A DNA stretch of 37,375 nt from a bacterium (lineage in GTDB: Bacteria > Actinomycetota > Coriobacteriia > Coriobacteriales > Eggerthellaceae): positions 1 through 37,375 of the forward strand of contig CAVHXL010000001.1 in assembly GCA_963639885.1 (NCBI GenBank). The letters are read 5' to 3'. The notes below the pieces were generated by a model. The model made no database searches, had not been told where the DNA came from, and was given only the letters and a program-made list of their open reading frames with translations. Of the stretch, positions 5,546 to 37,375 are shown one piece after another. The first letter of the stretch is position 1. The number at the start of each line of letters is the position of its first letter. The translations under genes and the position numbers were made by a program.

Positions 5546-5557
5546 GGAAAAGCCTCT

Positions 5558-9973: not shown

Positions 9974-10048
9974 CGTCTCCCCTTTCCCCTTGCCTTTTGG
10001 GCGCATGAGGCGGTCAGGCGCGCGAGCGCGGCTCCGACCGCTAGATAG

Positions 10049-11555: not shown

Positions 11556-11716
11556 CTTCCACCATTCCAACAATCCGACAGGCGGCCGGGCGGCAACGCT
11601 CGCGCCGCGGCCGGCAAACACTTCCCACCAGCCAACGAGAACGGCCGCATGCACGCTGCGCCGTTCGCTCGGCAATTATCTCATTCTACGATATAAAGCG
11701 ACCGGCGCGACGTGCG

Positions 11717-12711: not shown

Positions 12712-13518
12712 CTATTCCCCCTGCATCAACGGGACGCACACGCGCTCGATGCGCCCGTCGGGCAACGTCGCTGGAGCAACGCAGGCGTCCATGTGGTAGA
12801 TCAGGCGCATGATCTCGGTCGTGATGCACTCGTCGGGGGAACCATCGCGCAGCACCAGACCATCATGCATCACGACCACCCGATCGGCGCAGAACAGCGC
12901 GTGGTCGGGGTCGTGCGTGACCATGACCACCGACTTCCCCAGCTTCGAGAGCATGCGCATCCTCGAGAGCACCAGATGCTGGTTGCCGTAATCAAGCGAT
13001 GCCGTCGGCTCATCCATCACCAGCACGTCGGCCTGCTGCGTGAGCGCGCGGGCGATGAGCACGAGCTGCTGCTGGCCGCCCGACAGCGTGGTGTAGGGAC
13101 GATCGGCCAAATCAGCGATATCGAGCAGGGCCATTGCCTGATAGGCGATGACGCGGTCGTAATCGCTCGTGAACGACAGCTGGTTTTGATACGGCGTGCG
13201 CCCCATGATAACCACGTCGGCCACGCTGAACGGGAACGGCGGCGTATGCGCCTGCGGTATGTAGGCGAAATGCCGCGCGCGTTGCCTGTCGCTCAGCTTC
13301 GAGATGTCCTGCCCCTCGATAAGCACCGTGCCGCCGAACGCCGGCAAGAGCCCCATCATCGTTTTGAGCGTGGTCGTCTTGCCGCACCCGTTCGCCCCGA
13401 TGATGCACACGAACTCGTCGCGATCGACCGCGAACGACACGCCATGGACGATCTCGTGCTCGTGCTTCTTCCCGTAACCGCAGCGCAAATCGCGCACCTC
13501 GAGCAAATGATCGGCCAT
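12712..13518 (-). CDS. ABC ATP-binding protein, iron-chelate/cobalamin/molybdate type II importer family
   Basis: Likely ATG 13518 (MADHLLEV); GANGCGKT, LSGGQQQ, VMDEPTASLDYGNQ, VTHDPDHA. Confidence 0.93.
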   Translation of the reverse strand: MADHLLEVRDLRCGYGKKHEHEIVHGVSFAVDRDEFVCIIGANGCGKTTTLKTMMGLLPAFGGTVLIEGQDISKLSDRQRARHFAYIPQAHTPPFPFSVADVVIMGRTPYQNQLSFTSDYDRVIAYQAMALLDIADLADRPYTTLSGGQQQLVLIARALTQQADVLVMDEPTASLDYGNQHLVLSRMRMLSKLGKSVVMVTHDPDHALFCADRVVVMHDGLVLRDGSPDECITTEIMRLIYHMDACVAPATLPDGRIERVCVPLMQGE

Positions 13519-13520
13519 CG

Positions 13521-14780
13521 CTACCACCCCCTCATGTTCTTCTTGAAAATGAAGGCGAAGAACGGGATGCCGAGAATGGACGTCAGGATGCCGATCGGTA
13601 TCTCCACGGAGAGAACCAAGCGCGAAAGATTGTCCACCAGCAGCAGGAACACGGCCCCTACCAGGAGCGACGTGGGCAGCAACGCCTTGTAGTTCGGCCC
13701 GACGATCGCGCGCGCGAGATGCGGGACCACCAGCCCGATCCAGCCGACGATGCCGGCGACGGCGACCGACACGCTCGTGATGAGCGTCGCGCCGAGGATG
13801 ACCCAAAGCCGCGTCATCTTGGTGTTCACGCCGAGGGCGCGCGCCTCCTCGTCGCCGAAAGAGAGCACGTTGAGCTTACGCGCGTTGACGAGCAGCAATA
13901 TGAAACCGATAAGCATCGGCACCAGAAACGGGCCGATATCCACAGCGTCTGCCTTGGAGAACGAGCCCATGAGCCAGTAGGTGATCTCGGGCAGCTTGTT
14001 GTTGCCGTCGGCAAGCAGCTTGATGGCGGACATGATGCTCTGGAACAGCGTCGAGGTCAGGATGCCGGCAAGCACGAGCCCCAGCATGGCGTCGTATTGA
14101 ACGAAGCGCGTGAGCCACACCGTGCAGCCGACGGCGACCATGCCTCCGACGAACGCCATGATCTGCACGTTGGTGCCGCCCATGTTCAGCAGCAACCCCA
14201 GGCACGCGCCAACCGAAGCGCCCGCCGAGGCGCCCAGCAGGTCGGGCGAGGTCAGCGGGTTCTTGAACATGCCTTGATAGCTTGCGCCCGCCATGGCCAG
14301 CGCACCGCCGACCAGCATGACGATGAACACGCGCGGCAGGCGGATCTTGAACAGCGAGCGGTACATGTTCTCGTCAAGCGCCCCGTAGTCGCCGGTGATG
14401 GAGCCTTGGATGACATACCAGACGGTCGACAGGGCGTCGAGCGGGTTCATCGAGTAACGCCCGAGCGAGAGCGATGCGAGCACGGCGAGAACCAGTACCA
14501 CGACGATGATGGCGAAAGCGCGCGCGGAAAGATGACCGCGGAACGTCACGTTGGCGAGCTCCTTGAGCTCCTCGTCGGAAAGCCCGTCCTCGCCGGCGGA
14601 GGTCTTGCTGACCAGCTCGCGCGCAATCTGATTGGCGTCTTTTGGGGCGGCGGCTGCGGGAGCTGCGGGGGCGGAGGCGGCAGCAGCCCGGGTGGTGGCG
14701 GCTGGGGCCTCGGCGGCCCCGGCGGCTGGAGCCTCGGCCATGTCGACCGGGGCCTTGCGATCCGTTGTTTTCCTTCTCAT
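13521..14780 (-). CDS. FecCD/BtuC-family ABC permease
   Basis: IRLPR, FKNPLTSPDLLG, WLMGSF, EARALG, GWIGLVVPH, EIPIGILT. Ala/Pro-rich N-terminal extension; start uncertain (14786, 14780 or 14741). Confidence 0.93.
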   Translation of the reverse strand: MRRKTTDRKAPVDMAEAPAAGAAEAPAATTRAAAASAPAAPAAAAPKDANQIARELVSKTSAGEDGLSDEELKELANVTFRGHLSARAFAIIVVVLVLAVLASLSLGRYSMNPLDALSTVWYVIQGSITGDYGALDENMYRSLFKIRLPRVFIVMLVGGALAMAGASYQGMFKNPLTSPDLLGASAGASVGACLGLLLNMGGTNVQIMAFVGGMVAVGCTVWLTRFVQYDAMLGLVLAGILTSTLFQSIMSAIKLLADGNNKLPEITYWLMGSFSKADAVDIGPFLVPMLIGFILLLVNARKLNVLSFGDEEARALGVNTKMTRLWVILGATLITSVSVAVAGIVGWIGLVVPHLARAIVGPNYKALLPTSLLVGAVFLLLVDNLSRLVLSVEIPIGILTSILGIPFFAFIFKKNMRGW

Positions 14781-14792
14781 GGGCAACGCGCC

Positions 14793-15380
14793 TTACATGC
14801 CGAAGCGGCCGGCGGTCGAACCCGATGAGCCGGACGATCCGGAACCGGAGGAGCCGGAGGAGCCTGAAGAGGCGTTGTTGCCCAACGTCGCCTTCGATTT
14901 CGAACCGGACGAGGAATCGGAGCTTGAGCTGGAATCGGAGCTCGAGCCGGATCCGGAGTTTGAGCCTGCGCCCTCAGCGGAGCCCGAGCTGCCCGTCGCA
15001 GCGCTTGCCGAGCCCCCCGTCGTCTCAGATGTTCCGCTCGCGGAGCCATCCGATCCCGACGAGGAGGCCTCGGCGTCCTCCTTCTTCACCACGTAATAAG
15101 CACCCGTGTTCGGGTCGATATACACCTTGCCCGCCTCGACATATCCCGATCCGGCCGCCGTCAAGTCTTCCGGCTGCACCGTCGCGTCGATCTTCTCCAT
15201 GTCCTGCTCGTCGTACTTCTCGACGTTCGTGTCGATGTTCCAATGCGTCATCATGGCCACCATGAACCCGCATGCGAGGACGAGCATGCAGTCGGCGAGG
15301 TTGACGATGTAGGCTGAAGGATTGACATCCTCGCCCATCTCCTCGCGGTGCCGCCGCAGCTTTCCCTGACCTATCCGCAT
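14793..15380 (-). CDS. DUF2149-family single-TM protein (ExbD/TolR-like partner) with Ser/Gly-rich tail
   Basis: EDVNP..IVNLADCMLVLACG TM containing Asp; G..AGKVYIDPNTGAYYVV motif; 5 nt downstream of the MotA/TolQ/ExbB gene; RBS AGGAG. Confidence 0.85.
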   Translation of the reverse strand: MRIGQGKLRRHREEMGEDVNPSAYIVNLADCMLVLACGFMVAMMTHWNIDTNVEKYDEQDMEKIDATVQPEDLTAAGSGYVEAGKVYIDPNTGAYYVVKKEDAEASSSGSDGSASGTSETTGGSASAATGSSGSAEGAGSNSGSGSSSDSSSSSDSSSGSKSKATLGNNASSGSSGSSGSGSSGSSGSTAGRFGM

Positions 15381-15385
15381 GGCTC

Positions 15386-16210
15386 CTACGCCTCCTGGGA
15401 GGCGGGCTTATCGGAGGCCTCGGCGGCCTCAGCCTCGCTGGATGCGCGAGACCCGCCAGCCGCGGCCGGCTCTTCCGGCGCGCCTTGAGCGCCCGCGTCG
15501 GCCCCGTTTCTCACCTTGTAATCGACCAGCGGGTTGCCCGTGTAGCCCGCCGGCAGGGACACGCCCTGCTTGCGCGCGAGATCGGCCTGCTCGATGATGC
15601 AGTTCATCAGCGACTCGAGCGTGTTGGTGTACTTGGCGTACCACAGCGTGCGAATCTTCGAGAGAACCAGGGAGAACACGGCCACGACCAGGCCGCACAC
15701 CGTCGCATCGAAGGCCACCAGAAGCGATGATGACAGCGTTGCGATGTTGCCCTGGCCCATGGCCACGATGCCCGGGCCGAGCGGGATGAGCGTTCCCATC
15801 AAACCGAGCATCGGCGCGATTTTCGAGATGGTGTCCGTCACCGCGACGCGGCGCTTGTAGCGGCCCTCCACGTTCTCCAGCTGCGTGGAGGCCATGGACA
15901 GCAACGCCTCCTCGGGAAGGCCCATGTTGCGCGACACCATGATGAGCGCCGCCTTCTGGAAGCGCAGAAGCGCGCTTTCGGCGACGATGCGCGTGATGTT
16001 GCCGTAATCCGCATCGTTGATCTGGTTGATGATCTGCGCGATGTTCTGCTTGTAGTGCCGTCGCTCGGTGAAGAACTCGGCGATGATCTGGCCGAGCAGG
16101 ACGAGCGAGACCAGCAGCATCAGGATGATGATGACCATCGTCGGGCCCAAAAGCGCCTGCGCGATGTCGTGCAGGATATCCGGTAAGTAAGTATCTTCCA
16201 AAACGTTCAT
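15386..16210 (-). CDS. MotA/TolQ/ExbB proton-channel family protein
   Basis: Three TMs; APMLGLMGTLIPLG and LLVAFDATVCGL match the ExbB/TolQ TM2 and TM3 pattern; RBS AAAGG. Confidence 0.9.
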   Translation of the reverse strand: MNVLEDTYLPDILHDIAQALLGPTMVIIILMLLVSLVLLGQIIAEFFTERRHYKQNIAQIINQINDADYGNITRIVAESALLRFQKAALIMVSRNMGLPEEALLSMASTQLENVEGRYKRRVAVTDTISKIAPMLGLMGTLIPLGPGIVAMGQGNIATLSSSLLVAFDATVCGLVVAVFSLVLSKIRTLWYAKYTNTLESLMNCIIEQADLARKQGVSLPAGYTGNPLVDYKVRNGADAGAQGAPEEPAAAGGSRASSEAEAAEASDKPASQEA

Positions 16211-16228
16211 TGCGCGGACTGCCTTTCG

Positions 16229-17380
16229 CTAGCTCTTCGAATACGGCGGGTAACTGTTGCCGAGCATCTTGAGTGCCTGCTCGTCGGTGATATCGACCCA
16301 ATACAGCGTGCTGTAGAACTTCTTCGTCTCCTCGACCATGTCGACGTCGTACAGGTCGGGGTAGAGCATGTTGGCGACCCACTGAAGGCCCAGCATGCGA
16401 TTGACTCCCGGCGGGCGATCGCACCATGAGAACGGGGTGGAAGGCATGGTGTAGACGCGATTGTTCTTGACGGCCTGGATGTTGGCCCATTTCTCATCCG
16501 TGCGGATAAGCTCGTCGGCGCCTCCGAGCACCTCGGAGTCCCATGCGACGATGACCTCGGGATCCCACTTGTACACCGATTCCAGCGAGACGTTCGTCAT
16601 GCCCAAATCGACCGTGAGCTCGACCTGCGCGACGTTTTTCGCCTTGGCGGCCTCGAAGCAGCTTGCGTGCTGCGAGATGTTCGGCTCGGTGTTCAGGCCG
16701 AACGCGCCCTCGGCGTAATACAGGGAAACCCGCTGATCGTCGGTGACCGGCTCGAGCGCGGTCGTGACATCATGGTAGATGCCCTCAAGATAGGTGGCGA
16801 TGGCCTCGGCGCGCTCGGGCACGCCCAAGATATCGCCGACGAAGCGATACGCATCGCCGATGACGTCGAACGAGCCGTCAACCAGCACAACCGGGATATC
16901 GGTGGCGTTCTGCAGACCCTCGGCATCGGTGATGTTCGACGCACTCAAGCCCACGCCGGATATGCTGAACACCAGCTGGATGCCCTCGGCGAGCAGCTGT
17001 TCGCGATCTATCTCGCCGCCATCGGACAGCGAGCCCATATAGGGGAGCTCGTTGATGCCCTCGGGCAGAAACTCCAGCTGCTCTTTCGTGAAGCGGCCGG
17101 ACGTGCCTCCCTGCACCTCGGGCTTGAGCGAGAACACGTACACCTGCGCCAGCCCCGAGGTGAAGTACACCTTTTCAATGGCGTTGGCCGTGGGGATGGT
17201 CAGCTCGCGGCCCGCATGGTCGGTGATCTTGCGCTTATTGCGGAAGAACGCATCCCCCGCCTCGGATACGCAGCCGCTCATCGCGCCCGCGGCCGGCAAG
17301 GCGGCGGCGGTAAGCGCCGCCGTGGCGCCGACGCGCACGAAATCGCGTCGAGTGAGCAACTGTGCGGATTCGTCTTGCAT
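16229..17380 (-). CDS. Tat-exported lipoprotein, class III (Fe/B12/TroA-like) ABC substrate-binding protein
   Basis: TRRDFV twin-arginine motif; lipobox MSGC; ITDHAGRELTIP, VSLESVYKWDPEVI, AVKNNRVY, PFSWCDRPP. Confidence 0.9.
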   Translation of the reverse strand: MQDESAQLLTRRDFVRVGATAALTAAALPAAGAMSGCVSEAGDAFFRNKRKITDHAGRELTIPTANAIEKVYFTSGLAQVYVFSLKPEVQGGTSGRFTKEQLEFLPEGINELPYMGSLSDGGEIDREQLLAEGIQLVFSISGVGLSASNITDAEGLQNATDIPVVLVDGSFDVIGDAYRFVGDILGVPERAEAIATYLEGIYHDVTTALEPVTDDQRVSLYYAEGAFGLNTEPNISQHASCFEAAKAKNVAQVELTVDLGMTNVSLESVYKWDPEVIVAWDSEVLGGADELIRTDEKWANIQAVKNNRVYTMPSTPFSWCDRPPGVNRMLGLQWVANMLYPDLYDVDMVEETKKFYSTLYWVDITDEQALKMLGNSYPPYSKS

Positions 17381-17386
17381 TCGGCT

Positions 17387-18055
17387 TTACCCTTCCTGTC
17401 TCACATCGTAGCCGCCGAGCAGCGCCGCGCCGAAAGACGCGCCATCCTCGACAGCCCAGGCGCCCTCATCGTTTCGCACCATGTACAGGGCGAAGGGCGC
17501 TTCGGTGCTGATCTGGCCCACGTTTTGCCACACGTCGGCGGCATAGGTCGCCATGACGGCGGTGTTGCCGGCGAGAGCAGCCTGCTGATATGCGTCGCCA
17601 AGCAGGTCCGTCGCCTGCTTGCCGTCGCGCGTCGTGAAGTTTACGAGCACCTCGACCGACCCATCCTGCATGTCGCGCAACCCCGCGACCTCATAGGAGA
17701 ACCCGTCGAAGAAACCGGCGATGAACTCGTCGTAGGAAAGTCCGCACACAGCCGGGTCGAAGCGCGACGCCGCGAGGTAAGGCTCGAGCGCGGCTGCGTC
17801 TCGGGCGCAAACGGCATCCAAAACGGCAACCGCGGCGTCGCGGGCCGCGCTCGCCCCTTCGCTCGGCTGCGCGCTCATCTCAGCCTCATAGGCTTGCTGC
17901 GCCTGCTCAGCCAGGCGCGCGCTGCGGTCCGATGCGCTTTCCTGGTCAGATGCACCGGCGGCGTTGCCGCTCGCGGCGCCGAAGGCGCAGCCGGAGGCGG
18001 CCAGGGACGCCGACAGCAGCAGCGTCGCCGCAACCGCGGCGATTGTGCGCTTCAT
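17387..18055 (-). CDS. Lipoprotein of unknown function
   Basis: Likely ATG 18055 (MKRTIAAV) with RBS GGGGG; lipobox ASGC; acidic mature domain ending MVRNDEGAWAV. Confidence 0.8.
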   Translation of the reverse strand: MKRTIAAVAATLLLSASLAASGCAFGAASGNAAGASDQESASDRSARLAEQAQQAYEAEMSAQPSEGASAARDAAVAVLDAVCARDAAALEPYLAASRFDPAVCGLSYDEFIAGFFDGFSYEVAGLRDMQDGSVEVLVNFTTRDGKQATDLLGDAYQQAALAGNTAVMATYAADVWQNVGQISTEAPFALYMVRNDEGAWAVEDGASFGAALLGGYDVRQEG

Positions 18056-18076
18056 GTGTTTCCCCCGAATGGTCAT

Positions 18077-21000
18077 CTACTGCAGCAGCTCCTTCAGGTA
18101 CGCCTCAAGGCTCATCGGCAAAACGCCGTCACCGCCAAGCAGGTAGCACGCATCGACCTTCGACGCGTTCGGCGCCAGCAGCTCGTCGGCGAAGGTCATG
18201 TCATAGCCGTCGGTAAGCACGAGTATGCCGCCGCACGATCCGGCAAGCGGGCCGCCGGCCAGCGCGTCGGGGAAGTTCACGCCCGTCGCAACGCAAACGC
18301 GCGAGAGGGAAAGCCCCTCGTCAACCTCATGCTTGGCGATCTCAAGCGAAGTGTCGTAGCGGGTTTGGCCGTACCAACGCTCGAATTCAAGGCCGGGAAG
18401 CTGAGCTTGAACGCCATCGGAGACGCAGATCTCGCCGCCAACGGCTACGATGCGCGTCGCGCCGGATGCCTTGATGGCGGCAATCGCCTCGTCCGAAAGC
18501 AGCTTGTCGCCCTCCACCAGCACCACCGGCGCGTTCTTCGCATACGAGAACGGGCTGATGGACAGCGAGTCGGCCGCGTTGTCCGCACGCGCAAGCACCA
18601 CCGTGTCGACATGCGAGCCTGCCGCCTCCATGGCGGAGACGACCTTGTCGAGCGATTCGAGCGAGGTGAGCTGACGCGTCTGGCCCGCCACGCGCTCGGC
18701 GTCGACGCCTATCGCCGCCAGGTCTGAAAGCACGGTATCGGAAAGCGCCGCGCTTCCGCCCATGACGAGCGCCTTCGTCGCGCCCAGGCGCACGATTTGC
18801 CGTTTAGCCTGCTCGGAAAGCGATTCTTTGTTGGTAAGCACGATGGGGGAACCGTATGCCCCCGCCAAGGCGGACGCCGAAAGCGCGTCGGGGAACGACT
18901 GGGCCGTCGCGACGATGACCGTATCGCTGCTCTCAAAGCCCTCGTTCACGACAGCCTCCATGGTGTCGAGGCGCGTCTGCCCCGAAAGGCGTTTCACCTC
19001 GGAAACGTGCTTGGCCGAGATGCTGAACGTGACGCTCTTCGTGCCCACGTAGCCGCCGAGGCCGGTGATGGTCGCCGTCGCCGTGCCGGGCGCGGTGTTG
19101 TTCGCGTACGAAACCGCGTAATCGACGCCGGCCGAAAGCTTCACGCCGCCAAGCGTCACCGAGAGCGCCGGTTCGACGGCCTCGCCGGAACCCTCAACGA
19201 TGACCTGGTCGTCAACGGCGGCGATCTCGGCCTGCGCAAGGTCGCCGACATATGCGACGAACGAGAAGTTATGCCCGCCGTTTTCCGTCGAGCCCGACAC
19301 GGCGGCGTTGGCCGCGGCAAGCGCCTTAACCGCGCTCGCAGCGCTTCTGCCCACCACGCGCACCGGCGTCTGCGCGCCACCGACGTAGTTGAAGGAGTTC
19401 GATCCGACCGAGGACGGCAGCGTCGCCGACACCGTCTCGAACTCGAGCAACGTCAGCTTCGAGCAGTTCGCGAACGCCATTTTGCCGATGGTCGTCACAC
19501 CGGCCGGGAAATGGAACTCGGCAAGGTTGCCGCAATACTGGAACGCGTTATCGCCGATGGTGGCCAGCTTGGAGGATTTCTCGAAGGAGACGCTCTCGAT
19601 GTCGGGGTGAGCCGTCGCCACGCCGCCGAACGCATATTTCTCGATCGTGGTCACGCTCGCGGGGATGACGACGCTTCTGACGCGCTTCTTGCAATCCTGG
19701 TAGGCGCCCTCGTAGCAGGAGCTCTTCGGACCGCCGAAGGCGTTCTCGCCGATAATGGCGACAGGATAGCTCACGCCGTCACGCTCCACCTGCGATGGGA
19801 TAACCAGATCGAGCTTGCCTTCGCTTGAGCCCGTGTACGTGAAGCCGGTGATCTTGGCCACCTGCTGACCGTCGACGGAGACGACATCCCATGCATATTC
19901 GAACGGGTCCTCATCGACGATATCGAACGTGCCGGACACGGTGCCCGCAAAGCGCCCCTGACCGACGACGGTGTAGCTTGCCGTGCCGGGGGCGGTGTTG
20001 TTCTGATACGTGATGGTGTAATCGGCGCCTTCGGCGAGCCTGTTGCCAGCGTAGTACACCTTCACCGGGCAGGCCGGCTCGCCCTCGAAGGGCACGCCGC
20101 CCTCGGGAAGCTCGATGCAGGTCTCGTCAAGCTGCGCCTTGTTGCCCCGGTCGGCGATCTTTATCAGCATGTTCTCGTAGTTGCTGAAGTTCGAGCCGGC
20201 CACATAGCGAACCATCACCGATCCCCAGCAGGTTTCGCCCGCCTCGCCGATGTTGTTCTTGCTGACATGGATGTTCTCGGCGTCGGTGTTGCCATCCGAG
20301 CCCAAATCGCCGTACAGCACGATGTAATCGCGGTCCAAAACCAGGTCGCGGTCAAGGTACTTCACACCGCTGACCTCAGGTTTCACCGGATAGCCCGTAT
20401 AGTCGAGCACCGGGATCTTGCTCTCGTCGTCCTCGGATGTGCTGTTCGTGGAGCTGTGCCACGGATAGTCGTTGCCCAGATAGCTGATGGTCGCCTCGCC
20501 ATCGAGGGAGAACGTGTTCATGAACTTCGCCTTCGAGATGACGAACGTGCCGGCGAGGGTGCCCTCGTAGTCGCTGGCATCGGTGGCCGCGATGGCGACA
20601 TCGTACATGCCGGCGTCGACAGCCTCCCCCGACAGCTCCCATGTGAACTCATCCGCGCCAAGCGCGATACCGGCCGAGTTCTTCACCGTGACCCCTGCGG
20701 GCTGCTGCGCCTCCCAATTGAACACCTTCGAATCGATTACGGCCGTGCACTGCGAAAGGTCGCCCTTGTCGATGCCGTACGACACGCTCGCCGCCGAGGT
20801 GCCCTCATAGCGCCCGATGCCCACGATGGTCGCGCGGTAGGGTTTGTCGGACGTGCGCGCGATGGCGCCCTCCTGCGGGACGACGCGGTAATCGACGTTT
20901 TGCAGCAGCTTCACGCCGTTCAGGGTCGCCGAAACCGTCGGGGCCGACTCGGTGCCGGTGTACTTCGCATTGGCGGCAAGCGTCAGGGATGCCTCCGAGA

Positions 21001-22975
21001 TGTCCTTCTTCGCGTAGCCGCTCACCTGCCAGCTCAATACGGGGAAGCCGCCGTTGTCGGTCCCGTTCGAGGAGGTCCAGTAGGTTTGCCACCCGCTTGC
21101 GGCCGCCGTGGAGTTCAGAAGCTCGAAGACCGAGTCCATATCCCCCTCGGCCATCACCTCCTCGCCGTCTTGCACGGTGCGATAGCGATAATGCATCGAG
21201 GTCGTGCCCTTGAGGCTGTCCTCGGCCTTTTGCAGAACCACCTTGCCCGACGCGTCCTTCTTATCGGTGCAGATGAAGTTGTTCGCGGCGGTACCGTTGG
21301 CGTCATCGTCGGTGGAGACCTCGCCATAGGTCATCTGGGCGTCGGGGCACGAACCGTCGAGCGCCGTGTTGTCGTAGACGTATCCCTCGTTGTTGCCGAC
21401 GATGTGGCGCGCGCGGAAGCCCGCCTGCGTCTCGATGCTGCCGGCATTGTAGTTGTTGTACGCCGTCGAAAGCGGGCTGTTGCGCACCTGCGTGCCCGTC
21501 GTCGTATCGGTCTTCGTGTAATGCAAAACGCCGCCCGCGATACCCGCGGAATAGTAGCCTTGAGCGCCCTTGAGCGTGCATGCGGCTTCGTTATCCCAGG
21601 TAGCAGAGGCAACGATACCCAAATTTCCGCAGAAGCCGACGTCGCCGTACGTGCGTCCGACGATGCCCGCCACAAACGGCTTGTTCCAGCGCGTGCCGAC
21701 GACGATCGTTTCCCTGCTCGACCTGTCGCGGCCGTTCATGCAGCCGGTGATGGTGGTATAGGTTCCCGCTTGCCCCACGATGCCGCCGACCGCCGCGCGC
21801 GCATAGACGATGCCGATGTTGACGCACTCGGTGGCGACGATCGGGTCGTCGGCCGATCCCTCGTCCGAACCCTCGCCGCTGTAGTTGCCGTTGTCCGTCG
21901 ACTCGACCGAGCGCAGCGCGCCGACGATGCCGCCGGCGATGGAGGCGTTCTCGATGTTGAGATAGCCGTAGTTCGTGCAGGAGCTCACGCTGCCGCGCGC
22001 GTAGCCCGCGATGCCGCCGACGTTGGAGGACTGGGCGGAAACGGCCATGCCGAAGCGGTCGGTGCCCGCCTCGGAGGGCGTGTCGATTTTGATGGAGTCG
22101 TTCTTGTTGTTGTCGCCGGAGCCGCTGCCCTCGTTAACGCAATTAACGATACTGCCGTGGGAATCGGCCGTGGACGTCGTTCTCGACTTGGTGACGTCGC
22201 CCTGATAACCCGCCACGCCGCCAACGTAGCTCACGAGCACGGCCTCGTCGAACTCGCTTACCGGATCGGACGTTGCCGAGATATCGATCAGGCCGGCGAA
22301 GGTGCAGTCGATCAGGCTGCCGTAGCAGGTGCCGGCGATGCCGCCGACGCGCTCGATAACCGAGGTTTCCGTCTCGGACTTCTGCACGGCGGCCGAATCC
22401 ATCTTGATGGAGCCCCTGATCGTGCACCCGACGATGGAGCCCTCGCTGCGCCCGACCAAAAGGCCGATATCGGAAAGGAAGGCCCCCTCCTGCTCGGTTA
22501 CGGAACGCGTGATCTTCACCGACTTGCCCAGCGTCGTGTCCTGGATCATCGAGCTTGCACCTGTGTAGCCGAACAGGCCCACGCAGGTATCGGCCGAGCT
22601 GTCGATGACGATGTTGTCGATCGTTTTTCCCGCGCCGTCGAAGGTGCCGTTGAAGGGCTTCTCCGCGGTTCCGATCGGCGTCACGGTCATGCCGCGCCCG
22701 TTCACGTCGCCGGAAAGCGTGATGGTTTTGCCGGTGAAGTCCACACCGCTTGACACCAGCTCGCCGATGCCCGCTATCTGCGCGATGCTCTTCACCGTGA
22801 AAGTGGTTTTGGAAGCGTCGTACCACGAGGTATCCGGAGTTGCCGTCGCGGCGGCAACGATGGAGCCGGCCTCGCTCGATGCCTCGGCCCAGGCAGCGGC
22901 AGGCACCATGCCAAGCGCCAAGGTTGCGGCAAGCACGACGCTTGCGCAAGCGTTCCCGAATCGATGTTTCATCAT
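18077..22975 (-). CDS. Large cell-surface protein: GLUG-like repeats, Ig-like repeats, BspA-type LRR, three CWB2 repeats
   Basis: Signal peptide ends AAWA; many (V/A)GGI(A/V)G repeats; about 5 L..G.DY...Y.NN..PGTA repeats; VTTIEKYAF, TIGDNAF, TTIGKMAF; RLSGQTR..FPDALS CWB2 motifs; ATGA overlap with the upstream stop. Confidence 0.9.
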   Translation of the reverse strand: MMKHRFGNACASVVLAATLALGMVPAAAWAEASSEAGSIVAAATATPDTSWYDASKTTFTVKSIAQIAGIGELVSSGVDFTGKTITLSGDVNGRGMTVTPIGTAEKPFNGTFDGAGKTIDNIVIDSSADTCVGLFGYTGASSMIQDTTLGKSVKITRSVTEQEGAFLSDIGLLVGRSEGSIVGCTIRGSIKMDSAAVQKSETETSVIERVGGIAGTCYGSLIDCTFAGLIDISATSDPVSEFDEAVLVSYVGGVAGYQGDVTKSRTTSTADSHGSIVNCVNEGSGSGDNNKNDSIKIDTPSEAGTDRFGMAVSAQSSNVGGIAGYARGSVSSCTNYGYLNIENASIAGGIVGALRSVESTDNGNYSGEGSDEGSADDPIVATECVNIGIVYARAAVGGIVGQAGTYTTITGCMNGRDRSSRETIVVGTRWNKPFVAGIVGRTYGDVGFCGNLGIVASATWDNEAACTLKGAQGYYSAGIAGGVLHYTKTDTTTGTQVRNSPLSTAYNNYNAGSIETQAGFRARHIVGNNEGYVYDNTALDGSCPDAQMTYGEVSTDDDANGTAANNFICTDKKDASGKVVLQKAEDSLKGTTSMHYRYRTVQDGEEVMAEGDMDSVFELLNSTAAASGWQTYWTSSNGTDNGGFPVLSWQVSGYAKKDISEASLTLAANAKYTGTESAPTVSATLNGVKLLQNVDYRVVPQEGAIARTSDKPYRATIVGIGRYEGTSAASVSYGIDKGDLSQCTAVIDSKVFNWEAQQPAGVTVKNSAGIALGADEFTWELSGEAVDAGMYDVAIAATDASDYEGTLAGTFVISKAKFMNTFSLDGEATISYLGNDYPWHSSTNSTSEDDESKIPVLDYTGYPVKPEVSGVKYLDRDLVLDRDYIVLYGDLGSDGNTDAENIHVSKNNIGEAGETCWGSVMVRYVAGSNFSNYENMLIKIADRGNKAQLDETCIELPEGGVPFEGEPACPVKVYYAGNRLAEGADYTITYQNNTAPGTASYTVVGQGRFAGTVSGTFDIVDEDPFEYAWDVVSVDGQQVAKITGFTYTGSSEGKLDLVIPSQVERDGVSYPVAIIGENAFGGPKSSCYEGAYQDCKKRVRSVVIPASVTTIEKYAFGGVATAHPDIESVSFEKSSKLATIGDNAFQYCGNLAEFHFPAGVTTIGKMAFANCSKLTLLEFETVSATLPSSVGSNSFNYVGGAQTPVRVVGRSAASAVKALAAANAAVSGSTENGGHNFSFVAYVGDLAQAEIAAVDDQVIVEGSGEAVEPALSVTLGGVKLSAGVDYAVSYANNTAPGTATATITGLGGYVGTKSVTFSISAKHVSEVKRLSGQTRLDTMEAVVNEGFESSDTVIVATAQSFPDALSASALAGAYGSPIVLTNKESLSEQAKRQIVRLGATKALVMGGSAALSDTVLSDLAAIGVDAERVAGQTRQLTSLESLDKVVSAMEAAGSHVDTVVLARADNAADSLSISPFSYAKNAPVVLVEGDKLLSDEAIAAIKASGATRIVAVGGEICVSDGVQAQLPGLEFERWYGQTRYDTSLEIAKHEVDEGLSLSRVCVATGVNFPDALAGGPLAGSCGGILVLTDGYDMTFADELLAPNASKVDACYLLGGDGVLPMSLEAYLKELLQ

Positions 22976-24951
22976 GCCGTTCCTCCTAGAGGTTGCTCAT
23001 CCCGGTATTCAAGGGGCCTGCGTTGCCGCGCATACCAAAACGACAGCTGCACCAATCCCGCGACGAAGGCCGCGAGGCATACGGGCACCACGAAAGGCTT
23101 GAAGGGGTTCTGCGCATATTGGATATCGAGGTTGGTCGTGTAGGGGTTCATGATCTGGTAGATGCTGTAAGCGCCCTGCCCGGTGCCGACCTCGTTTGAT
23201 TGCACGCCCGAGCCCCGCTGATCGCCCACGCCGGAGCCGATGCCGGCGATGCCGATGCCATCACCCGCGCCGGACGAGCCCGACCCGCCCGTGCCCGCGC
23301 CGCCGGTGCCTCCGTTCGCGATGACCTGGTTTTGCTGGCTGGGATCGGTTTTCTTGTCCTCGTTCTTGTTATCCGCGTCCGGGTTGTTATTCGGATCATC
23401 GCCGTTGTCGGGGTTGACGGGCGCCGATCCTTTCAGCGTGACGTTGATGCGGTTGATCCACTTGATGGAGTATCCGCTGGTGGAATCGCTGAAGGAGGCC
23501 GAACCCATGAGCAGGCGAAACTGCGTCGCGTCGGATAGGCCCTTGTCCTTGCCCTCGACCACCGAGTACACCGAAAGCCAGTTGCTCTCGAAGGCGAGCA
23601 TTGGCTCGACGCTTTTCACGATGGTGGAAATGCCCGCCACGTAACTGGCCGGATCGTAGGTGTAGCGCGTGGTGAACAGCGCGTCGATGGAAGCCGTGTA
23701 ATTCGCGCGGTCGGCGCCGCTGAGGAACTGCACCGACGCGATGGCGTCAAGACCATCGGCCTGGGCGGTTTCGCACGCATCAACCAGAAGGTTTCGCACG
23801 GAAACGCCGTAGCCCGTCGCCTGCGCGGCGCCGCTCTTGCCGATAAGCGTGTATGTCTCGGTCATGGTGCCGAGCGCGCCGAGGTCCGCGCGCGAATACT
23901 GCTTGTCCTCGATGGTGATGGCCCCTTCAGGCGCTTCCTCGTATTCGATATGGACGGTGAGGGTGTCCTGCGTGTGCGCCTCGCTATCGCCATCGGGGTC
24001 TTCGACCGTGACGGATATCGAGTTCGACATCACCCGGTAATCGGAACTGCAGGCGAAGACGTTGACCAAACCATATTCGCGCTGCCGGTATTCGCCGGTG
24101 GCGGGCTCGACCGCCGCGATCTGGCTGTCGCTCACCTCCCAGCAGAGGTCTTCCAGGTCGGGGTCTTGAGCGGAAAGTTTTCCGTCCTCGGTGCTGAGGC
24201 TTGTGCCGTCTTCTAAGGTGACGACGGCATAAAATTGCAGGTGAACTTCGCTTTTCCGCGTGTCATCAAGGTAAATGTCGTCGGTGGCGTACGCTGAGCT
24301 GTGGATGGAAATGCCCGTGATGGTTTTGCCGGATTGCCCCGACACATAGACGGGAACGACAAGCTCGATGGGATCGCCCGTCAGCGTGTTCTTCGTCATG
24401 GAAACGGTGATCTCGGCCTCACCGTCGCCGCGAGCGATGATCTTGCCATCGCGATCAACCGTCACGATCGCATCATCTGAGGAATGGAACTCCATTCCGG
24501 TTGGGTTGCGCTCGTAGGTATCGTCATTCCACCAGGCGATTCCGTAAAGATCGCCCGTCTGGCCCTGCTTGGTCAGCTCAATCGGGTCGGGTTCGTCGCC
24601 GCTTGAGGCGTAACCGAGGGTGACCTCGCGCTCGTTCATGAGCAGCGTGACGGATATGTCGTCGACATAATGCGTCGGCGCCTGGTCGGACGAGCCGCCT
24701 GCATCGGATCCTTCGCCCGAACCGCCATCAACGGCGAGGACGGCTTCGGTGCCGGAGCCGGCGGACGCTGAGGCGGCGATGGTGGAGGAGGCGGAGGAAG
24801 CGGACCCCGCGTCAGCGGCGAGGGCGAATGCCGTTTGCAGCGAGAAAGAGCAGCTGAAGGTGAGAACGAAGGCTAAAAGCGTGCAAAACGCCTCGTAGGC
24901 GACGCGCCGAGAGCGCGCCACAAACGCGGCCTTGTCCCCTATCGAAAGCAT
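22972..24951 (-). CDS. Membrane-anchored surface protein: Ig-like (Big_2-type) domains plus a molybdopterin-oxidoreductase-like domain
   Basis: RBS AAGGAGG; signal peptide ends AFA; SSDDAIVTVD..G.I.A.G.GEA.ITV; GVSVRNLL..PMLAFE..FRLLMG..KWINRINV; Gly-rich linker; C-terminal TM followed by RQRR. Confidence 0.82.
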   Translation of the reverse strand: MLSIGDKAAFVARSRRVAYEAFCTLLAFVLTFSCSFSLQTAFALAADAGSASSASSTIAASASAGSGTEAVLAVDGGSGEGSDAGGSSDQAPTHYVDDISVTLLMNEREVTLGYASSGDEPDPIELTKQGQTGDLYGIAWWNDDTYERNPTGMEFHSSDDAIVTVDRDGKIIARGDGEAEITVSMTKNTLTGDPIELVVPVYVSGQSGKTITGISIHSSAYATDDIYLDDTRKSEVHLQFYAVVTLEDGTSLSTEDGKLSAQDPDLEDLCWEVSDSQIAAVEPATGEYRQREYGLVNVFACSSDYRVMSNSISVTVEDPDGDSEAHTQDTLTVHIEYEEAPEGAITIEDKQYSRADLGALGTMTETYTLIGKSGAAQATGYGVSVRNLLVDACETAQADGLDAIASVQFLSGADRANYTASIDALFTTRYTYDPASYVAGISTIVKSVEPMLAFESNWLSVYSVVEGKDKGLSDATQFRLLMGSASFSDSTSGYSIKWINRINVTLKGSAPVNPDNGDDPNNNPDADNKNEDKKTDPSQQNQVIANGGTGGAGTGGSGSSGAGDGIGIAGIGSGVGDQRGSGVQSNEVGTGQGAYSIYQIMNPYTTNLDIQYAQNPFKPFVVPVCLAAFVAGLVQLSFWYARQRRPLEYRDEQPLGGTA

Positions 24952-25121
24952 CGCCCCTCCTTCGATTCAATTGGAAGACCGGCATTTCCCCCTGCCGACT
25001 TCGCGCTTCGACCGAATTTCAGCTGACATAAGCCAGCCCATCCGGCATGTCGAGCAGTTGGCACCCCGTGCGGGCAAAAGGCTGAACCCGCCACACGCGC
25101 ACCAACTATCCGTAAAGTTGA

Positions 25122-25127
25122 ATTATA
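25122..25127 (-). promoter_or_regulatory. Putative -10 element of the transporter/motor operon
   Basis: Perfect TATAAT on the minus strand in an AT-rich patch about 170 nt upstream of ATG 24951; no clear -35. Confidence 0.55.
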
Positions 25128-25232
25128 CCGGTTTCAGGAGCGCCTAAGTGCGCAAATGCCAAACGGAACGATTTCATTTCGGAGTGGCTGCCGGGCCCTG
25201 CGTGCTGACCCGGGAAAGCGCGGCATGCGCCA

Positions 25233-25389
25233 CGCGCGCCGGCGGCCTTAAACCCCCGCCGCACGCAGAAGGAAGCCGTTCGAAGCGCAGGCATGCTCCT
25301 GCGCGAACCGGACCACTCCCATCGCCCGGCGACGACATCAGCCTTGACGCCTCGCGCGCGCCGGCGACCTTAAACCCCCACCGCACGCA
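25233..25389. repeat. 35-nt intergenic direct repeat, two copies
   Basis: cgcgcgccggcg(g/a)ccttaaaccccc(g/a)ccgcacgca at 25233-25267 and 25355-25389; 33/35 identical. Confidence 0.85.
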
Positions 25390-25421
25390 AAGGGGGCCGT
25401 CGCTTTCGCGACGGCCCCCTT
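25389..25421 (-). terminator. Intrinsic terminator-like hairpin after the giant surface-protein gene
   Basis: 14-bp perfect stem AAGGGGGCCGTCGC-GAAA-GCGACGGCCCCCTT with a short U run, about 20 nt after the stop at 25443. Confidence 0.8.
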
Positions 25422-25442
25422 CCCCATCGTGCTGGGAATGCG

Positions 25443-28400
25443 CTACGAGAGCGCCTCTCTCGCGTGCTCCTCGAACTCGGCGGAGATGGAACCCTCGCCA
25501 CCGAGCAGGTACACCGAGGAAACCTCGCCCTTCTGCGCCGCGATGATGCTATCGAACAGCGACGTGTCGCTGCCGTCGGTCATCAGCATGACGCTATTGC
25601 TCAGCCCGCACAGGGCGCTGCCGGCCAGGGCATCGGGGAACTTCACACCCGTCGCGATGGCGGCATGGCTCACCGTCATGCCCTCGGCCAACTCGTGCTT
25701 CACGATGTCGGCGCACGTGGCGTAGCGATCGGCTCCGCTCCAGCGCTCAACCTGCATACCCGCAAGCTGATCGACGACGGATTCGGACACGGCGCCATCG
25801 CCGCCGACCATGACCACGCGCGTGACGCCCGCGGCCTTGATCGCCGACACGGTCGACGCCGAAAGCGTGCCATCGGCCTCGGTCAGGAAGATCGGCGCGG
25901 TCTTCGCGTAGCTGTACGGGCTCACCGACAGCGCGTCCCAAGGGCTCGAACCGGCGGCGACGATCGCCGTCACCGGCGAGGCGGACGCAGCCACCAGCTC
26001 GCTCACCTTGTTCGCCGTATCCTGGCGCGTGTCACCTGCGATGCGCTCCGTCGAGACGCCGGCCTTCTCAAGCGCCGCGATAACCTCGTCGGAAACGGCA
26101 CCCGCGCCGCCGAGCACGTAGGCCTTCGTGGCGCCTAAACGCTCGATCTCGGTCATGGCAGCCTCGGGAAGCGCGTTTGACTCCGTCAGGACAACCGGGC
26201 ACCCAAGCGTCCCGGCCAGAGCGGAAGCGGACAGCGCATCGGGGAAGTTCTCGCCCGTTGCGATAACCACGCTATCTGATTTATCGAATGCCGTACTGGA
26301 AATCGCACTTGCGGTCTCGTAACGTGTCTCTCCCGCGATGCGCGTCACGACGTTTCGAACCGGCGGCTCGAGCACCGTGAAGACAGCGGACGTCGTGCCG
26401 GTGTAGTTGCCCGCACCGGTGATGACGGCCTTGTACGAGCCGGCTGCGGTGATGGCCTCGACCACGTTGCCCGCCTCGTCGGTGAACGAGATCGTGTAAT
26501 CCTGCCCACGCTCAAGCGTCGCACCGTCGGCATCGCTGACCGTGATACCGGATGCGATGGTCTCGGCAAGGTCGGTGCCGTCAGCGGTCACGGAAGGCAC
26601 TTCGACCTTCGCGCCCTCGATCGACTTGATGTCGGGATCGGCCTGGTCGGTCTTGATGGTCAGATACGAGTTGCGCGACCAATAGTACATGCCGCGCGCC
26701 GTCGAGTGGTCGCCGGTGTACTCGTCCATCGTGATGCCCCAGATGACGCGGGGGTAGTTCTTGATGCCCTTGTTCGCAACGTTGTACGCAACCGCATCGG
26801 CCGCCGTCATGGCCTCGGTGGTACCGGTCGCCACCGAGTACTCGGTCAGCGACAGCACCGGCGGGGCCGCCTCGTTAATCTCGGGATAATCGGAATTGCC
26901 GCCCGAGGCCTTCGGGAAGAAGTAGCAGCGCGTCATGATCTCGTCATAGGTCTTGCTCTGCGCGGCCTTGCCCGGGGCGGACGGGTCGTCGCCACCCCAC
27001 ATGAGCGTCGCGCCGCTCGTCCAGTACATGCCCACGCCGGCATCGCCGAACAGGTCATCGAACGTGACGTACTCGGACGTGGTGACGACATGCCACACAT
27101 CGCCCTTCCAGAACATGCCGGAAACCGGGTCACCCTCGGACTTTATCTTCCAAAGGTCGCTTTCCTTGTAAGACTTCACGACCTTGGGCGTCTCGGAGCC
27201 CGCATAGAGCACCTGGATCTTGATGGACGGCGATTCGTACTTGATGGTGATGGAGTCGACGTTGCTCACCAGGCGCTTGCCCGCTGCGCTCGAGGCCTTG
27301 TATTCGTCCTCCGTGGCGCCGGTCAGGATGCGCGGCGCGGTGGCCGACGTAGCCGCGGCGGCGTTCGCCTGCTCGGCATCGGCCGCGGTCGCGCCCTCGG
27401 CGATGGCCGACGACGCCTCCTTAAGCGCCAGCGTCGCCGGCACGGTGGTGCCGCTTAGCGACTCATCGATGGCGCCTGCCGTCGTGGCCGGGTAGAACTT
27501 GCCGCCCTCAAGCTGCTCGTAGGTCTGCGAAACGGCGAAATCACCGGACGCGAACTCGACCGACGCGCCTTCAGCATAAGCCGAGGCGAGACCCGCACGG
27601 CTGAACAGCTTCGAGAGCGCGACGTTGCTCGTGCCCGTCGAGACGTTCCACGTTCCCTTCTTGCAGTACAGCGCCGAAACGTTGCCGTCGGAAGCCAGGT
27701 CGGCAAGATCGGCCTGCGTGAACTCGGCGACCATCGTCTTGTCGCCATCGTCAACGACCTTGTACACGGTCAAGTACGCTTTCACGGTGAAAGACGCCTC
27801 GACCTTGCCGGAGTAGTTGCCGATACCGGTGATGACGGCCTTATAGGTTCCCTTGTCCGTGACGGAGTCGATCGGATTACCCTGCTCGTCGGCGAACGCG
27901 ACCGTGTAGTCGACATCCTGGACGAGGGCGTTGCCGTCGGAGTCCTTCACCACGATGCCGGCAGCGGCTTCGGATGCGACGTCGGCACCGGTGAAGTACA
28001 CGTCGGCCGCGTCGATCTTCGCATCCGCGATGGACCTGCCGACGATCTGGAAGGTGCCGGTGATGGCGCCGGTGTAGTTGCCCTTGCCGACGACCACATA
28101 GGACGCGATGCCGATCTCGACGTTGTTGCTGTAGGCGACCACGTAGTCGACGCCGGAAGCGAGCTTCACGCCCGCCGCATTGACGATGGAGATCTCAGGC
28201 TCGACAGCCTCGCCCGTGGCGATCTGCGAATCGATCGGATCAACCTGAAGCCCGGACAGCGACGCCTGCGCGATCTCGAACGTGGTGTGCTTGTAGGCGC
28301 CCTCATAGGCTCCGATGCCCACGACGTCGACGCTCGCGGTACCGACCGCGGTGTTGTCCGAGAAGGCCAGCACGTAGTCGGTGCCCTCGACCAGCGCCGT

Positions 28401-36940: not shown

Positions 36941-36983
36941 CACGCTTGTCCCCCTGATTCGTCCCTTGTCATTTGCATCGCCC

Positions 36984-37375
36984 CTATCGTTTTCCATTGA
37001 CTATCGCCTCGTTCAAGCTCGTCGCGAACCAAGAAGACACGCTTGCATCGCCGCCGAACAGGTACGCAACATCGATATCGCCCGCATAGGAGGAAACCCT
37101 CGTCAGCACGGCCCGCTCGTCATTCGGGTCGACGAGCACCAGGGTGCTCTTCGCAGACCCGTTGACCGCCGAGCCCGAAAGGGCGTCGGCGAAGTTCGCG
37201 CCGGTAGCGAAAGCCGCATGCGCGACGGTGAACCCGCTGCCGCTTTCCGCCGAGGTCAGCCATGCGTTCACCTCATCATTGGTTTCGTAGCGAGTGCTAC
37301 CGGCCAAGCGCTCGACCGCATCGGCGCCCTCGGCGTCGCGCAGCTCGCTTTCCGTCGCGTCGCTTACAACCGCAT
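36984..37375 (-). CDS. CWB2 (cell wall binding repeat 2) protein, C-terminal part only
   Basis: Frame open to the right edge: VSDATESEL..VERLAGSTRYETN..ATGANFADALSG..YLFGGDASVS. Confidence 0.88.
   Translation of the reverse strand, partial: AVVSDATESELRDAEGADAVERLAGSTRYETNDEVNAWLTSAESGSGFTVAHAAFATGANFADALSGSAVNGSAKSTLVLVDPNDERAVLTRVSSYAGDIDVAYLFGGDASVSSWFATSLNEAIVNGKR

Follow-up and report, generated by a model that had tools for sequence, protein, structure and literature searches.

A candidate ion-driven motor pair linked to a tethered sulfite-oxidase-fold protein and a type II ABC importer in an Eggerthellaceae bacterium

We analyzed a 37-kb window of DNA from a bacterium of the Eggerthellaceae (the whole stretch from position 1 to 37,375 of contig CAVHXL010000001.1, assembly GCA_963639885.1), in which all genes lie on the minus strand. 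An operon of eight genes in this window (Table 1) places a MotA/TolQ/ExbB-like channel subunit and a protein of the DUF2149 family among the genes of an ATP-binding cassette (ABC) importer, downstream of genes for surface proteins. We propose, with a probability of about one half, that this locus is an accessory energizing module on the type II ABC importer of an Eggerthellaceae-like Gram-positive bacterium, in which a proton-driven motor would work via a tethered receptor. The parts of this proposal differ in strength. Judged by sequence, the ExbB-like/DUF2149 pair is very probably an ion-driven motor, and its role is likely that of an uptake accessory. The transmission of force through the 659-amino acid (aa) protein encoded by the first gene of the operon, suggested by gene linkage and architecture, is put forward tentatively.

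The candidate motor pair

Both members of the pair were assigned with profile hidden Markov models (HMMs), a check that the preliminary description of this DNA had recommended. The 274-aa protein matches PF01618 (MotA_ExbB) over residues 95-191 with 49.2 bits against a cut-off of 22.9, and the 195-aa protein matches PF09919 (DUF2149) with 32.2 bits against a cut-off of 27.1, a match that takes in only profile positions 4-43 of 92. When the family profile of the ExbB-like subunit was compared with the Protein Data Bank (PDB), the best match was E. coli ExbB (E 4.4e-5, profile positions 17-191 of 231), followed by MotA and TolQ. Its scores against the NCBIfam equivalog models (23.1 vs 221 for TolQ, 19.3 vs 206 for ExbB, and 22 vs 340 for MotA) are all far under the cut-offs, and the protein therefore represents a separate branch. 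Each of its last two membrane helices carries one conserved threonine, T140 and T170, and both are found in 95/95 unique sequences, with D168 in 92/95; these columns were not used in finding the loci. The threonines previously reported in GT and AT are seen in the window protein within LMGT and FDAT.

The DUF2149 protein spans the membrane once, with an N-terminal helix that carries an invariant aspartate (NLADCMLV). A conserved beta-hairpin (GKVYIDPNTGAYYVV) lies in the short outside segment, and a Ser/Gly-rich tail follows. In an alignment of 16 HMM-found sequences (A1), N27, D30, M32, L33, V34, A36, G84, D89, and Y96 are invariant, and the last three show that the C-terminal hairpin is present. 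D30 is the residue of the NLADCML segment that had already been singled out as a retained membrane aspartate, and it is found in 16/16 of these sequences; the 95/95 count for the same residue is biased, because the pattern used to find 80 of those loci includes the motif. The window protein is divergent (32 bits, half of the profile), and other Coriobacteriia families score 80-95 bits. After the helix come about 50 residues with one hairpin and a low-complexity tail, with no folded periplasmic domain of about 80 residues. Beyond PF09919 itself, the nearest Atlas clusters consist of short ExbD proteins (score 0.77), which we take as a lead only. DUF2149 likely works like ExbD; its membership in the ExbD family is not established by sequence comparison. 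In the PDB, the DUF2149 profile matched only designed beta-propeller "Cake" proteins; these matches arose through the hairpin and were summed over repeats, and we rejected homology in favor of a motif resemblance. The likeness of the hairpin to a propeller blade hints at strand complementation.

Conservation of the linkage

The source genome, an assembly of 211 contigs that is 68.9% complete, has three MotA_ExbB genes, each next to one of its three DUF2149 genes. At the second pair (contig C8, locus L004), the preceding genes encode a FecCD permease, an ATPase, a binding protein, and a 415-aa protein, and the third (contig C26, locus L005) lies between giants with BspA-type leucine-rich repeats (LRRs) and a SurA-like peptidyl-prolyl isomerase (PPIase). 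This third locus type, in which BspA-LRR giants of 1700-2550 aa and a SurA-like PPIase surround the pair, was also seen in L041 and L043, and L041 has two FecCD-like genes 7 kb downstream.

DUF2149 is patchily distributed, being found in 15/41 relatives, 9/22 same-genus genomes, and 34/299 high-quality genomes of the class. Nineteen neighborhoods from relatives, in which genes were called with a codon-usage model trained on the source genome and then scanned with Pfam, were combined with the three from the source genome to give 22 loci. The DUF2149 alignment was also used to scan 185,579 species genomes, which gave more than 598 pattern matches, 570 of them confirmed; the best 80 loci, seven of which duplicate loci from the earlier sets, were analyzed and scored with HMMs built from the window families. 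These 80 come from Eggerthellaceae and many Clostridia (Family XIII/Anaerovoracaceae, Lachnospiraceae, Oscillospiraceae, Peptococcaceae, Desulfoscipio, Desulfosporosinus, and Mogibacterium), and the closest named records among them are Gordonibacter, Eggerthella, Slackia, and other Eggerthellaceae. The linkage of motor pair, surface proteins, and importer on which the preliminary description had staked its case recurs in these genomes. The motor gene adjoins DUF2149 in 22/22 loci of the first set (3/3 in the source genome, 19/19 in relatives) and in 80/80 of the second. In 17/22 the cluster includes a Peripla_BP_2 or FecCD gene, which in L040 has the opposite orientation, and a binding protein or FecCD gene lies on the same strand in 55/80. 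With the same pair and its partners occurring three times in the source genome and at about 100 other loci, the module is beyond chance.

Some loci were found in records labeled Methanomethylophilaceae, Phocaeicola, Akkermansia, Alloprevotella, or Bacteroidaceae. We rejected an archaeal or Bacteroidota origin for them, L114 being identical to a same-genus locus and the four tested genomes lacking ExbD. L062, L065, L081, L107, and L114 are Eggerthellaceae-like loci under such labels, and the bin labels look wrong.

The 659-aa protein is the constant third partner

The AlphaFold2 (AF2) model of the 659-aa protein consists of a signal peptide, two immunoglobulin (Ig)-like (Big_2-like) domains, a domain that we call X (residues 325-515), a disordered G/S/N/D-rich tether of about 100 residues (~516-614), a membrane helix (618-643), and a basic tail. 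A conserved juxtamembrane motif, W.IYQMM...NPF.PF, precedes the C-terminal helix. Pfam detects only a weak Big_2 match in this protein, and Foldseek searches with the full-length model return Ig-like tandem matches only. When domain X was folded alone, from 43 sequences, it reached a mean predicted local distance difference test value (pLDDT) of 89.9 and a predicted template modeling score (pTM) of 0.87. VIA-align of this model against 48,161 chains returned ten top matches that all have the sulfite oxidase (SUOX) fold (Z 8.2-11.9; next Z 5.7). They are led by PruR (7kp2; Z 11.9, root-mean-square deviation 2.7, 126 aligned) and SoxC, and neopterin-bound PruR (7rkb) scores Z 10.9. Foldseek on isolated X likewise puts PruR and sulfite oxidases on top, and hhalign relates X to small PF00174 proteins at 91% and E 1e-6. 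In an alignment of 43 X sequences (A5), only G58 and G159 are invariant. The alignment has no invariant cysteine, and X therefore looks like a binding domain and not like a molybdoenzyme. PruR is likewise not known to have the molybdenum-ligand cysteine of an enzyme.

Homologues of 590-770 aa adjoin the pair directly in many Coriobacteriia and Family XIII loci. The HMM of the full-length family scores at least 100 bits in 36/80 named-genome loci, and the X-domain HMM has a match in 71/102 locus rows, mostly in the adjacent gene. In Clostridia the homologue has a permuted order (X, Big_2, C-terminal helix) and is homologous to the Coriobacteriia form (hhalign 99.9%, E 5e-37); a separate PF00174 protein of about 165 aa often follows DUF2149 there. 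A complex prediction with the C-terminal 64 residues of the 659-aa protein and two copies of DUF2149 (residues 12-112), run without controls, gave a score of 0.00 against a mark of 0.32, a result that counts neither for nor against a contact.

The preliminary description had linked the motor to the surface proteins in general, and the gene linkage is conserved for one of them. The 659-aa family is the constant third partner of the motor pair. The CWB2 giant (1632 aa) and the 229-aa lipoprotein are variable neighbors and not constant parts of the module. In the giant, Pfam finds CW_binding_2 (143 bits in 3 repeats) and LRR_5 (57.9 bits), and CWB2, SLH, LRR_5, Flg_new, and cohesin/dockerin proteins swap for one another in its place between loci. 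A signal peptide and the lipobox LAASGC mark the 229-aa protein as a lipoprotein. It has no match in Pfam, in NCBIfam, or by hhalign to other locus families, and it falls into generic lipoprotein clusters of the Atlas. Its homologues were seen only in window-like loci (L028, L029, and L030), and its HMM reaches 60 bits or more in 6/80 named-genome loci. CWB2 and sortase anchors had both been claimed for this region; the former stands, and the latter does not, with LPXTG or LAXTG present within the last 80 residues of 0/17 window proteins. A sortase anchor was rejected for the 659-aa protein, which has a C-terminal helix and basic tail and no sortase motif.

One further protein of the window, of 988 aa and outside the operon, has a divergent X-like domain at residues 703-926 (X-domain HMM, E 4e-13, 50 bits) and may be a further receptor of the 659-aa kind. 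It has no Pfam match at E 0.001 and only a sub-threshold Shr-like HID hit. Its C terminus looks like a degenerate LAXTG sortase signal, with AAKTG followed by a hydrophobic stretch and RRK.

The importer and its probable cargo

The binding protein of the operon scores 50.2 bits with Peripla_BP_2 and has a twin-arginine motif and a lipobox. Its best PDB matches are 4pag (6e-35) and 4ovk (2e-18), two uncharacterized binding proteins, and HI_1472 (MolA; 3psa/3psh, 1.7e-13) comes third. Over its full length it is 31-33% identical to the binding proteins of two loci with a molybdenum cofactor (Moco) riboswitch (L103 and L125) and of a TOBE locus (L093), and 25% identical to its paralogue in the same genome (C8). 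The permease matches FecCD (PF01032) with 276.8 bits and, in the PDB, HI1471 (MolB; 2nq2, 1.8e-57), HmuU (1.2e-47), FhuB (4.8e-43), and BtuC (4e-36). The ATPase matches PF00005 (ABC_tran) with 106.7 bits, and its NCBIfam matches are corrinoid, heme, and FecE ATPases, each below cut-off. HI1470/71 together with MolA forms the molybdate/tungstate importer MolBC-A, and MolA binds both molybdate and tungstate (PMC4031551).

Related loci point in the same direction. The Moco/tungsten-cofactor riboswitch RF01055 was detected with Rfam in 4/44 related loci scanned (L111, L125, L122, and L103), all in Clostridia-labeled records; in L111 it stands ahead of the operon, and in L125 directly before the binding-protein gene. 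Other neighbors that point to molybdenum or tungsten (Mo/W) are a TOBE protein with a LysR regulator (L093), the small PF00174 proteins, and the SBP_bac/BPD_transp_1 transporters of L076 and L092. L128 and L129, from other Coriobacteriia families with canonical, high-scoring DUF2149, add to these a Tup/Mod-type PBP_like_2/BPD_transp_1/ABC-TOBE transporter with HTH-PBP_like regulators. Tup/Mod-type transporters take the place of FecCD in L129, L076, and L092, and L101 and L108 have transporters of the energy-coupling factor (ECF) type with CbiQ genes. The source genome encodes at least eight molybdopterin oxidoreductases. Eggerthellaceae are among the bacteria with the largest Mo/W enzyme sets known, and the largest molybdoproteome reported is that of Gordonibacter, a relative (PMC6147048).

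The preliminary description had left the cargo at a metal or cofactor. The MolB and MolA matches, the riboswitches, and the fold of X narrow this to molybdate/tungstate or a pterin cofactor, which is probably what the module carries. For the window locus itself, the same comparisons make Mo/W slightly the better guess.

Host envelope and missing Ton components

Gordonibacter, Eggerthella, Slackia, and other Eggerthellaceae are Gram-positive Coriobacteriia. The window had been described as free of TonB, of a beta-barrel receptor, and of CobN/HmuS, and our searches agree. TonB_C (PF03544), ExbD, CobN (PF02514), and the TonB-dependent barrel (PF00593) had 0 matches in the window and in the 68.9%-complete genome. 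The searches for TonB_C, ExbD, and CobN were extended to 41 same-order genomes, 33 of them at least 90% complete. TonB_C was found in 0/41, and ExbD over the cut-off in 0/41, with one 23-bit fragment. CobN was found in 1/41, a genome without DUF2149, and in 0/15 of the relatives that carry DUF2149.

Proposed mechanism and alternatives

In the mechanism that we propose, the ExbB-like and DUF2149 subunits would form an ion-driven motor of the Mot/Exb/Tol kind, to which DUF2149 would, by homology, contribute the helix with the proton-carrying aspartate. From gene linkage, the motor would act on the C-terminally anchored 659-aa protein, whose tether of about 100 residues would extend into or through the wall. 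The SUOX-fold domain at the far end of the tether would capture molybdate/tungstate or a pterin-bound form. The work of the motor would then free the cargo or draw it down to the MolA-like lipoprotein, which would feed the MolBC-like permease and ATPase. Functionally, the module would correspond in monoderms to TonB-dependent uptake, with another protein in the place that receives the force. A more general version, in which a rotary motor winds the tether, drags the loaded X domain to the membrane, and forces release to ABC or ECF importers, seems to us rather doubtful. We are equally doubtful of its extension to intact pterin cofactor (molybdenum/tungsten cofactor or molybdopterin) taken from the gut, an idea that would fit the pterin-binding fold of X, a type II importer of the kind that takes large substrates, and control by a riboswitch whose ligand is the cofactor.

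Several results weigh against the proposed mechanism. The motor complex and the contact between motor and 659-aa protein are putative, the former being drawn from homology and the latter from gene linkage. DUF2149 gave no ExbD, TolR, or MotB match in the PDB at E up to 10 and no match to the ExbD model PF02472, and the genome has no PF02472 match at all. In an hhalign comparison, A1 aligned with 12 genuine ExbD sequences of diderm Firmicutes over 24 helix columns only, aspartate on aspartate, at E 0.0019 and a probability of 14% (controls, E 0.24-0.55). The PF00174 model finds the 659-aa protein only at E 0.066, elsewhere and not on X. An importer gene was not seen in the fetched DNA of 5/22 loci (L005, L031, L042, L043, and L045), several of which end at contig edges, nor in 25/80 of the best loci, many of them cut by contig ends.

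The cargo assignment meets counterevidence of its own. The MolA match spans only residues 209-361 of the binding protein. The window contains neither RF01055 nor a recognizable molybdenum regulator, and RF01055 was found in 0/16 Coriobacteriia-type loci scanned; the cargo call for the window locus therefore rests on similarity. MoaC and a ModA-like gene are present elsewhere in the source genome, so the window importer is not its only molybdenum route. Elsewhere in the family, a Ruminococcaceae record (L124) has a weak cobalamin riboswitch (8491-8658; 34.4 bits against a cut-off of 31.5) directly upstream of the motor gene, and DUF4430 proteins lie beside the pair in L080 (12234-13010) and L107 (12158-12901). 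Some family members may serve corrinoid uptake. The module may even be a general helper like the Ton system, with several cargoes and Mo/W as the commonest client in our sample, because one cobalamin riboswitch, two DUF4430 neighbors, and two ECF-type transporters occur beside it.

Siderophores, heme, and corrinoids are the usual cargo of FecCD/Peripla_BP_2 systems. The first alternative is the same machine with one of these as its cargo, the Mo/W signals belonging to other family members. The absence of a Moco riboswitch from the window and the L124, L080, and L107 neighborhoods are consistent with it. So are the NCBIfam models nearest to the importer, none of which reaches its cut-off (BtuC, FecD, and the ATPases for heme and corrinoids), a weak NEAT-like neighbor with cbi genes downstream in L032, and the heme operon hmuYRSTUV in which the Bacteroidota pair sits (PMC10434189). 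We nevertheless consider this alternative unlikely. The permease is nearer to MolB than to HmuU or BtuC by the E values given above, and the binding protein resembles its counterparts at the Moco-riboswitch loci more than its paralogue in the source genome. In addition, X has a pterin/Moco-binding fold and not a NEAT or corrinoid-binding one, and among the 44 loci scanned the cobalamin riboswitch was found once and the Moco riboswitch four times.

A second alternative assigns the pair and the 659-aa protein to the cell surface, where they would export, fold, anchor, or move giant wall proteins, and takes the nearness of an importer to be secondary. Very large CWB2, SLH, LRR_5, Flg_new, or cohesin/dockerin proteins adjoin the pair at every locus examined. 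In L005, L041, and L043 a SurA-like PPIase and LRR giants come right after DUF2149, with no importer within 7 kb or none seen, and some giants contain X-like domains (L031, L042, L067, and L072). However, the giants are not homologous between loci, whereas the X-domain protein is. Three unrelated transporter classes (type II ABC, Tup/Mod type I ABC, and ECF) recur beside the pair, and cofactor riboswitches and regulators occur in the same clusters. We regard a surface role as improbable on these grounds.

Slightly less probable still is a motor whose direct target is the importer, or the lipoprotein that binds the cargo for it, in release or gating, with the 659-aa protein as a passive capture device. 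The insertion of the pair between the binding-protein and permease genes in the window and window-like loci would fit such direct action, as would a set of importer loci (L028, L047, and L050-L055) that show no X-domain protein in the fetched DNA. L028 and L029, however, carry a 659-like C-terminal fragment at the edge of the fetched DNA, so truncation largely accounts for the apparent absence of the X domain. Type I ABC and ECF transporters, whose architectures differ, also accompany the pair, which argues against a specific contact with FecCD.

Finally, a vestigial Ton remnant without function, in line with a 2025 survey that calls complete and incomplete monoderm Ton systems "likely non-functional" (PMC12204202), is scarcely credible in view of the intact frames and three paralogous pairs in the source genome, the strict conservation of the key threonine and aspartate residues, the gene order kept across two phyla, and the lack of a TonB or receptor from which to derive.

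Comparison with known systems

The proposed module shares several features with the Ton system. Both have an ExbB-like three-helix subunit with conserved threonine and a small partner with one N-terminal aspartate-bearing helix, and in both the genes lie among those for the high-affinity uptake of scarce cofactors. In each, a third protein crosses the membrane with a single helix and bears its binding domain at the distal end of a long, flexible spacer. The resemblance is one of logic, the ExbB-like subunit being the sole Ton-specific part that the module has. In contrast to the Ton system, there is no outer membrane, TonB_C, TonB-dependent barrel, or ExbD periplasmic domain. The 659-aa protein is anchored at its C terminus, a topology opposite to that of TonB, and its distal domain has the sulfite-oxidase fold in place of the TonB C-terminal domain. 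The recipient of the cargo would be the lipoprotein that serves an ABC importer.

Among the closest known systems is the pair HmuU/HmuV, with PF01618 and PF09919 adjacent in the cofactor-acquisition operon hmuYRSTUV of Bacteroidota (PMC10434189), and the literature assumes that HmuU/HmuV powers uptake (PMC12583661). That operon also encodes the receptor HmuR, the hemophore HmuY, and the CobN-like dechelatase HmuS, whereas the window module has none of these. On the importer side, MolBC-A of Haemophilus influenzae (HI1470/71/72) provides the best solved permease match (2nq2) and, in HI_1472, a match for the binding protein. MolBC-A has neither a motor pair nor a tethered receptor, and the likeness of the module's binding protein to MolA is partial (209-361). 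PruR of Proteobacteria, a small extracytoplasmic pterin-binding domain with the sulfite-oxidase fold, is the best structural match to X. PruR is reported to be a soluble signaling partner of the enzyme DcpA (PMC11194511), whereas X, at 12-16% identity, sits in a membrane-tethered multi-domain protein linked to transporters.

A full-text literature search, within a corpus that leaves most subscription journals outside, returned no description of such a module in Gram-positive bacteria. Relative to the known machines, what would be new is the partner protein, the cellular setting, and, probably, the class of cargo. TonB-type energy transduction is taught as the answer to an unenergized outer membrane. 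If our proposal is true, ion-driven work also gets scarce nutrients through a thick wall or S-layer, a tractable Gram-positive model for such energy transduction becomes available, DUF2149 gains a role, and HmuU/HmuV in Bacteroidota merit a second look. No bacterial importer for the salvage of a pterin cofactor is known so far, and if that is the cargo, the module would be the first. The acquisition of Mo/W by Eggerthellaceae also bears on the chemistry of the gut, where an Eggerthella enzyme with catecholamine substrates is reported to depend on molybdenum (PMC7028382).

Operon layout, leader, and flanking genes

The eight genes are closely packed, in keeping with the earlier account of gaps of about 20 nucleotides (nt) or less and one ATGA overlap: in order, the junctions are a 4-nt overlap and then gaps of 0, 6, 18, 5, 6, and 2 nt. 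The overlap of the 659-aa and 1632-aa genes reads ATGA because the ATG start shares its TG with the preceding stop codon. The coordinates (Table 1) and Pfam assignments also agree with the described position of the motor pair, between the binding-protein and permease genes and behind the two surface proteins and the lipoprotein.

Table 1. Features of the operon and of one related gene in the window
Feature	Coordinates	Strand	Basis
659-aa X-Ig anchor protein	22972..24951	-	AF2 models, family alignments A2 and A3, local HMM
X domain of the 659-aa protein, SUOX fold, PruR-like	23407..23979	-	AF2, VIA-align, Foldseek, hhalign
1632-aa wall-bound surface protein, BspA-type LRR and three CWB2 repeats	18077..22975	-	Pfam
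229-aa lipoprotein, fold without assignment	17387..18076	-	signal peptide and lipobox
383-aa Tat-signal lipoprotein, Peripla_BP_2 binding protein, MolA-like	16229..17380	-	Pfam, PDB matches
274-aa MotA/TolQ/ExbB-like channel subunit	15386..16210	-	PF01618, ExbB-like three-helix layout
195-aa DUF2149 protein	14793..15380	-	PF09919, alignment A1
421-aa FecCD-family type II ABC permease, closest to MolB	13521..14786	-	PF01032, PDB matches
268-aa ABC ATPase, internal ATG start	12712..13518	-	PF00005
Operon leader, intergenic, 491 nt	24952..25442	-	
988-aa surface protein outside the operon, second divergent X-like domain	7040..10006	-	X-domain HMM

In the leader, a terminator-like perfect 14-bp hairpin (25390-25421) ends the upstream gene, which encodes a protein of 2644 aa. 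A consensus scan of the leader found no sigma-70-like promoter, inspection by eye revealed no convincing ModE-like site, and no Rfam family matches the leader at gathering score; the window as a whole has no riboswitch. Two direct repeats of 40 nt (25233-25272 and 25355-25394), 90% alike and 122 nt apart, were also seen, one of them overlapping the 14-bp hairpin. Either a site for a regulator or what is left of a duplicated terminator could explain them.

A further conserved family occurs with the pair in some Coriobacteriia (L004 of contig C8, 10685-11932; L032, 10946-12124; and, after DUF2149, genes for proteins of about 250 aa in L127-L131; hhalign 99%, E 5e-19). Its members have no signal peptide and no Pfam match, the C8 copy has a Cys-rich C terminus, and the family may be a cytoplasmic partner of the motor. 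L127-L131, from other Coriobacteriia families, share a fixed gene order that differs from the one in the window: CWB2 protein, ~150 aa, ~190 aa, ~550-610 aa, motor, canonical DUF2149 (80-95 bits), and ~250 aa. In L127 the ~550-610-aa protein matches the PQQ_2 beta-propeller model. Purple-acid-phosphatase-like proteins with cohesin/dockerin adjoin the module in L101, L102, and L121 (Peptococcaceae and Oscillospiraceae records). In L116, an Actinomycetes record, a fluoride riboswitch (14152-14225) lies 4 kb downstream of the pair and is probably unrelated.

On the downstream side of the operon, the window encodes a family 2 glycosyltransferase (10350-11654) and three secreted proteins without family (931-6940). 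Upstream lie two further CWB2-anchored proteins, the 2644-aa protein (25443-33377, minus strand) and a 1057-aa subtilase (33824-36997, minus strand).

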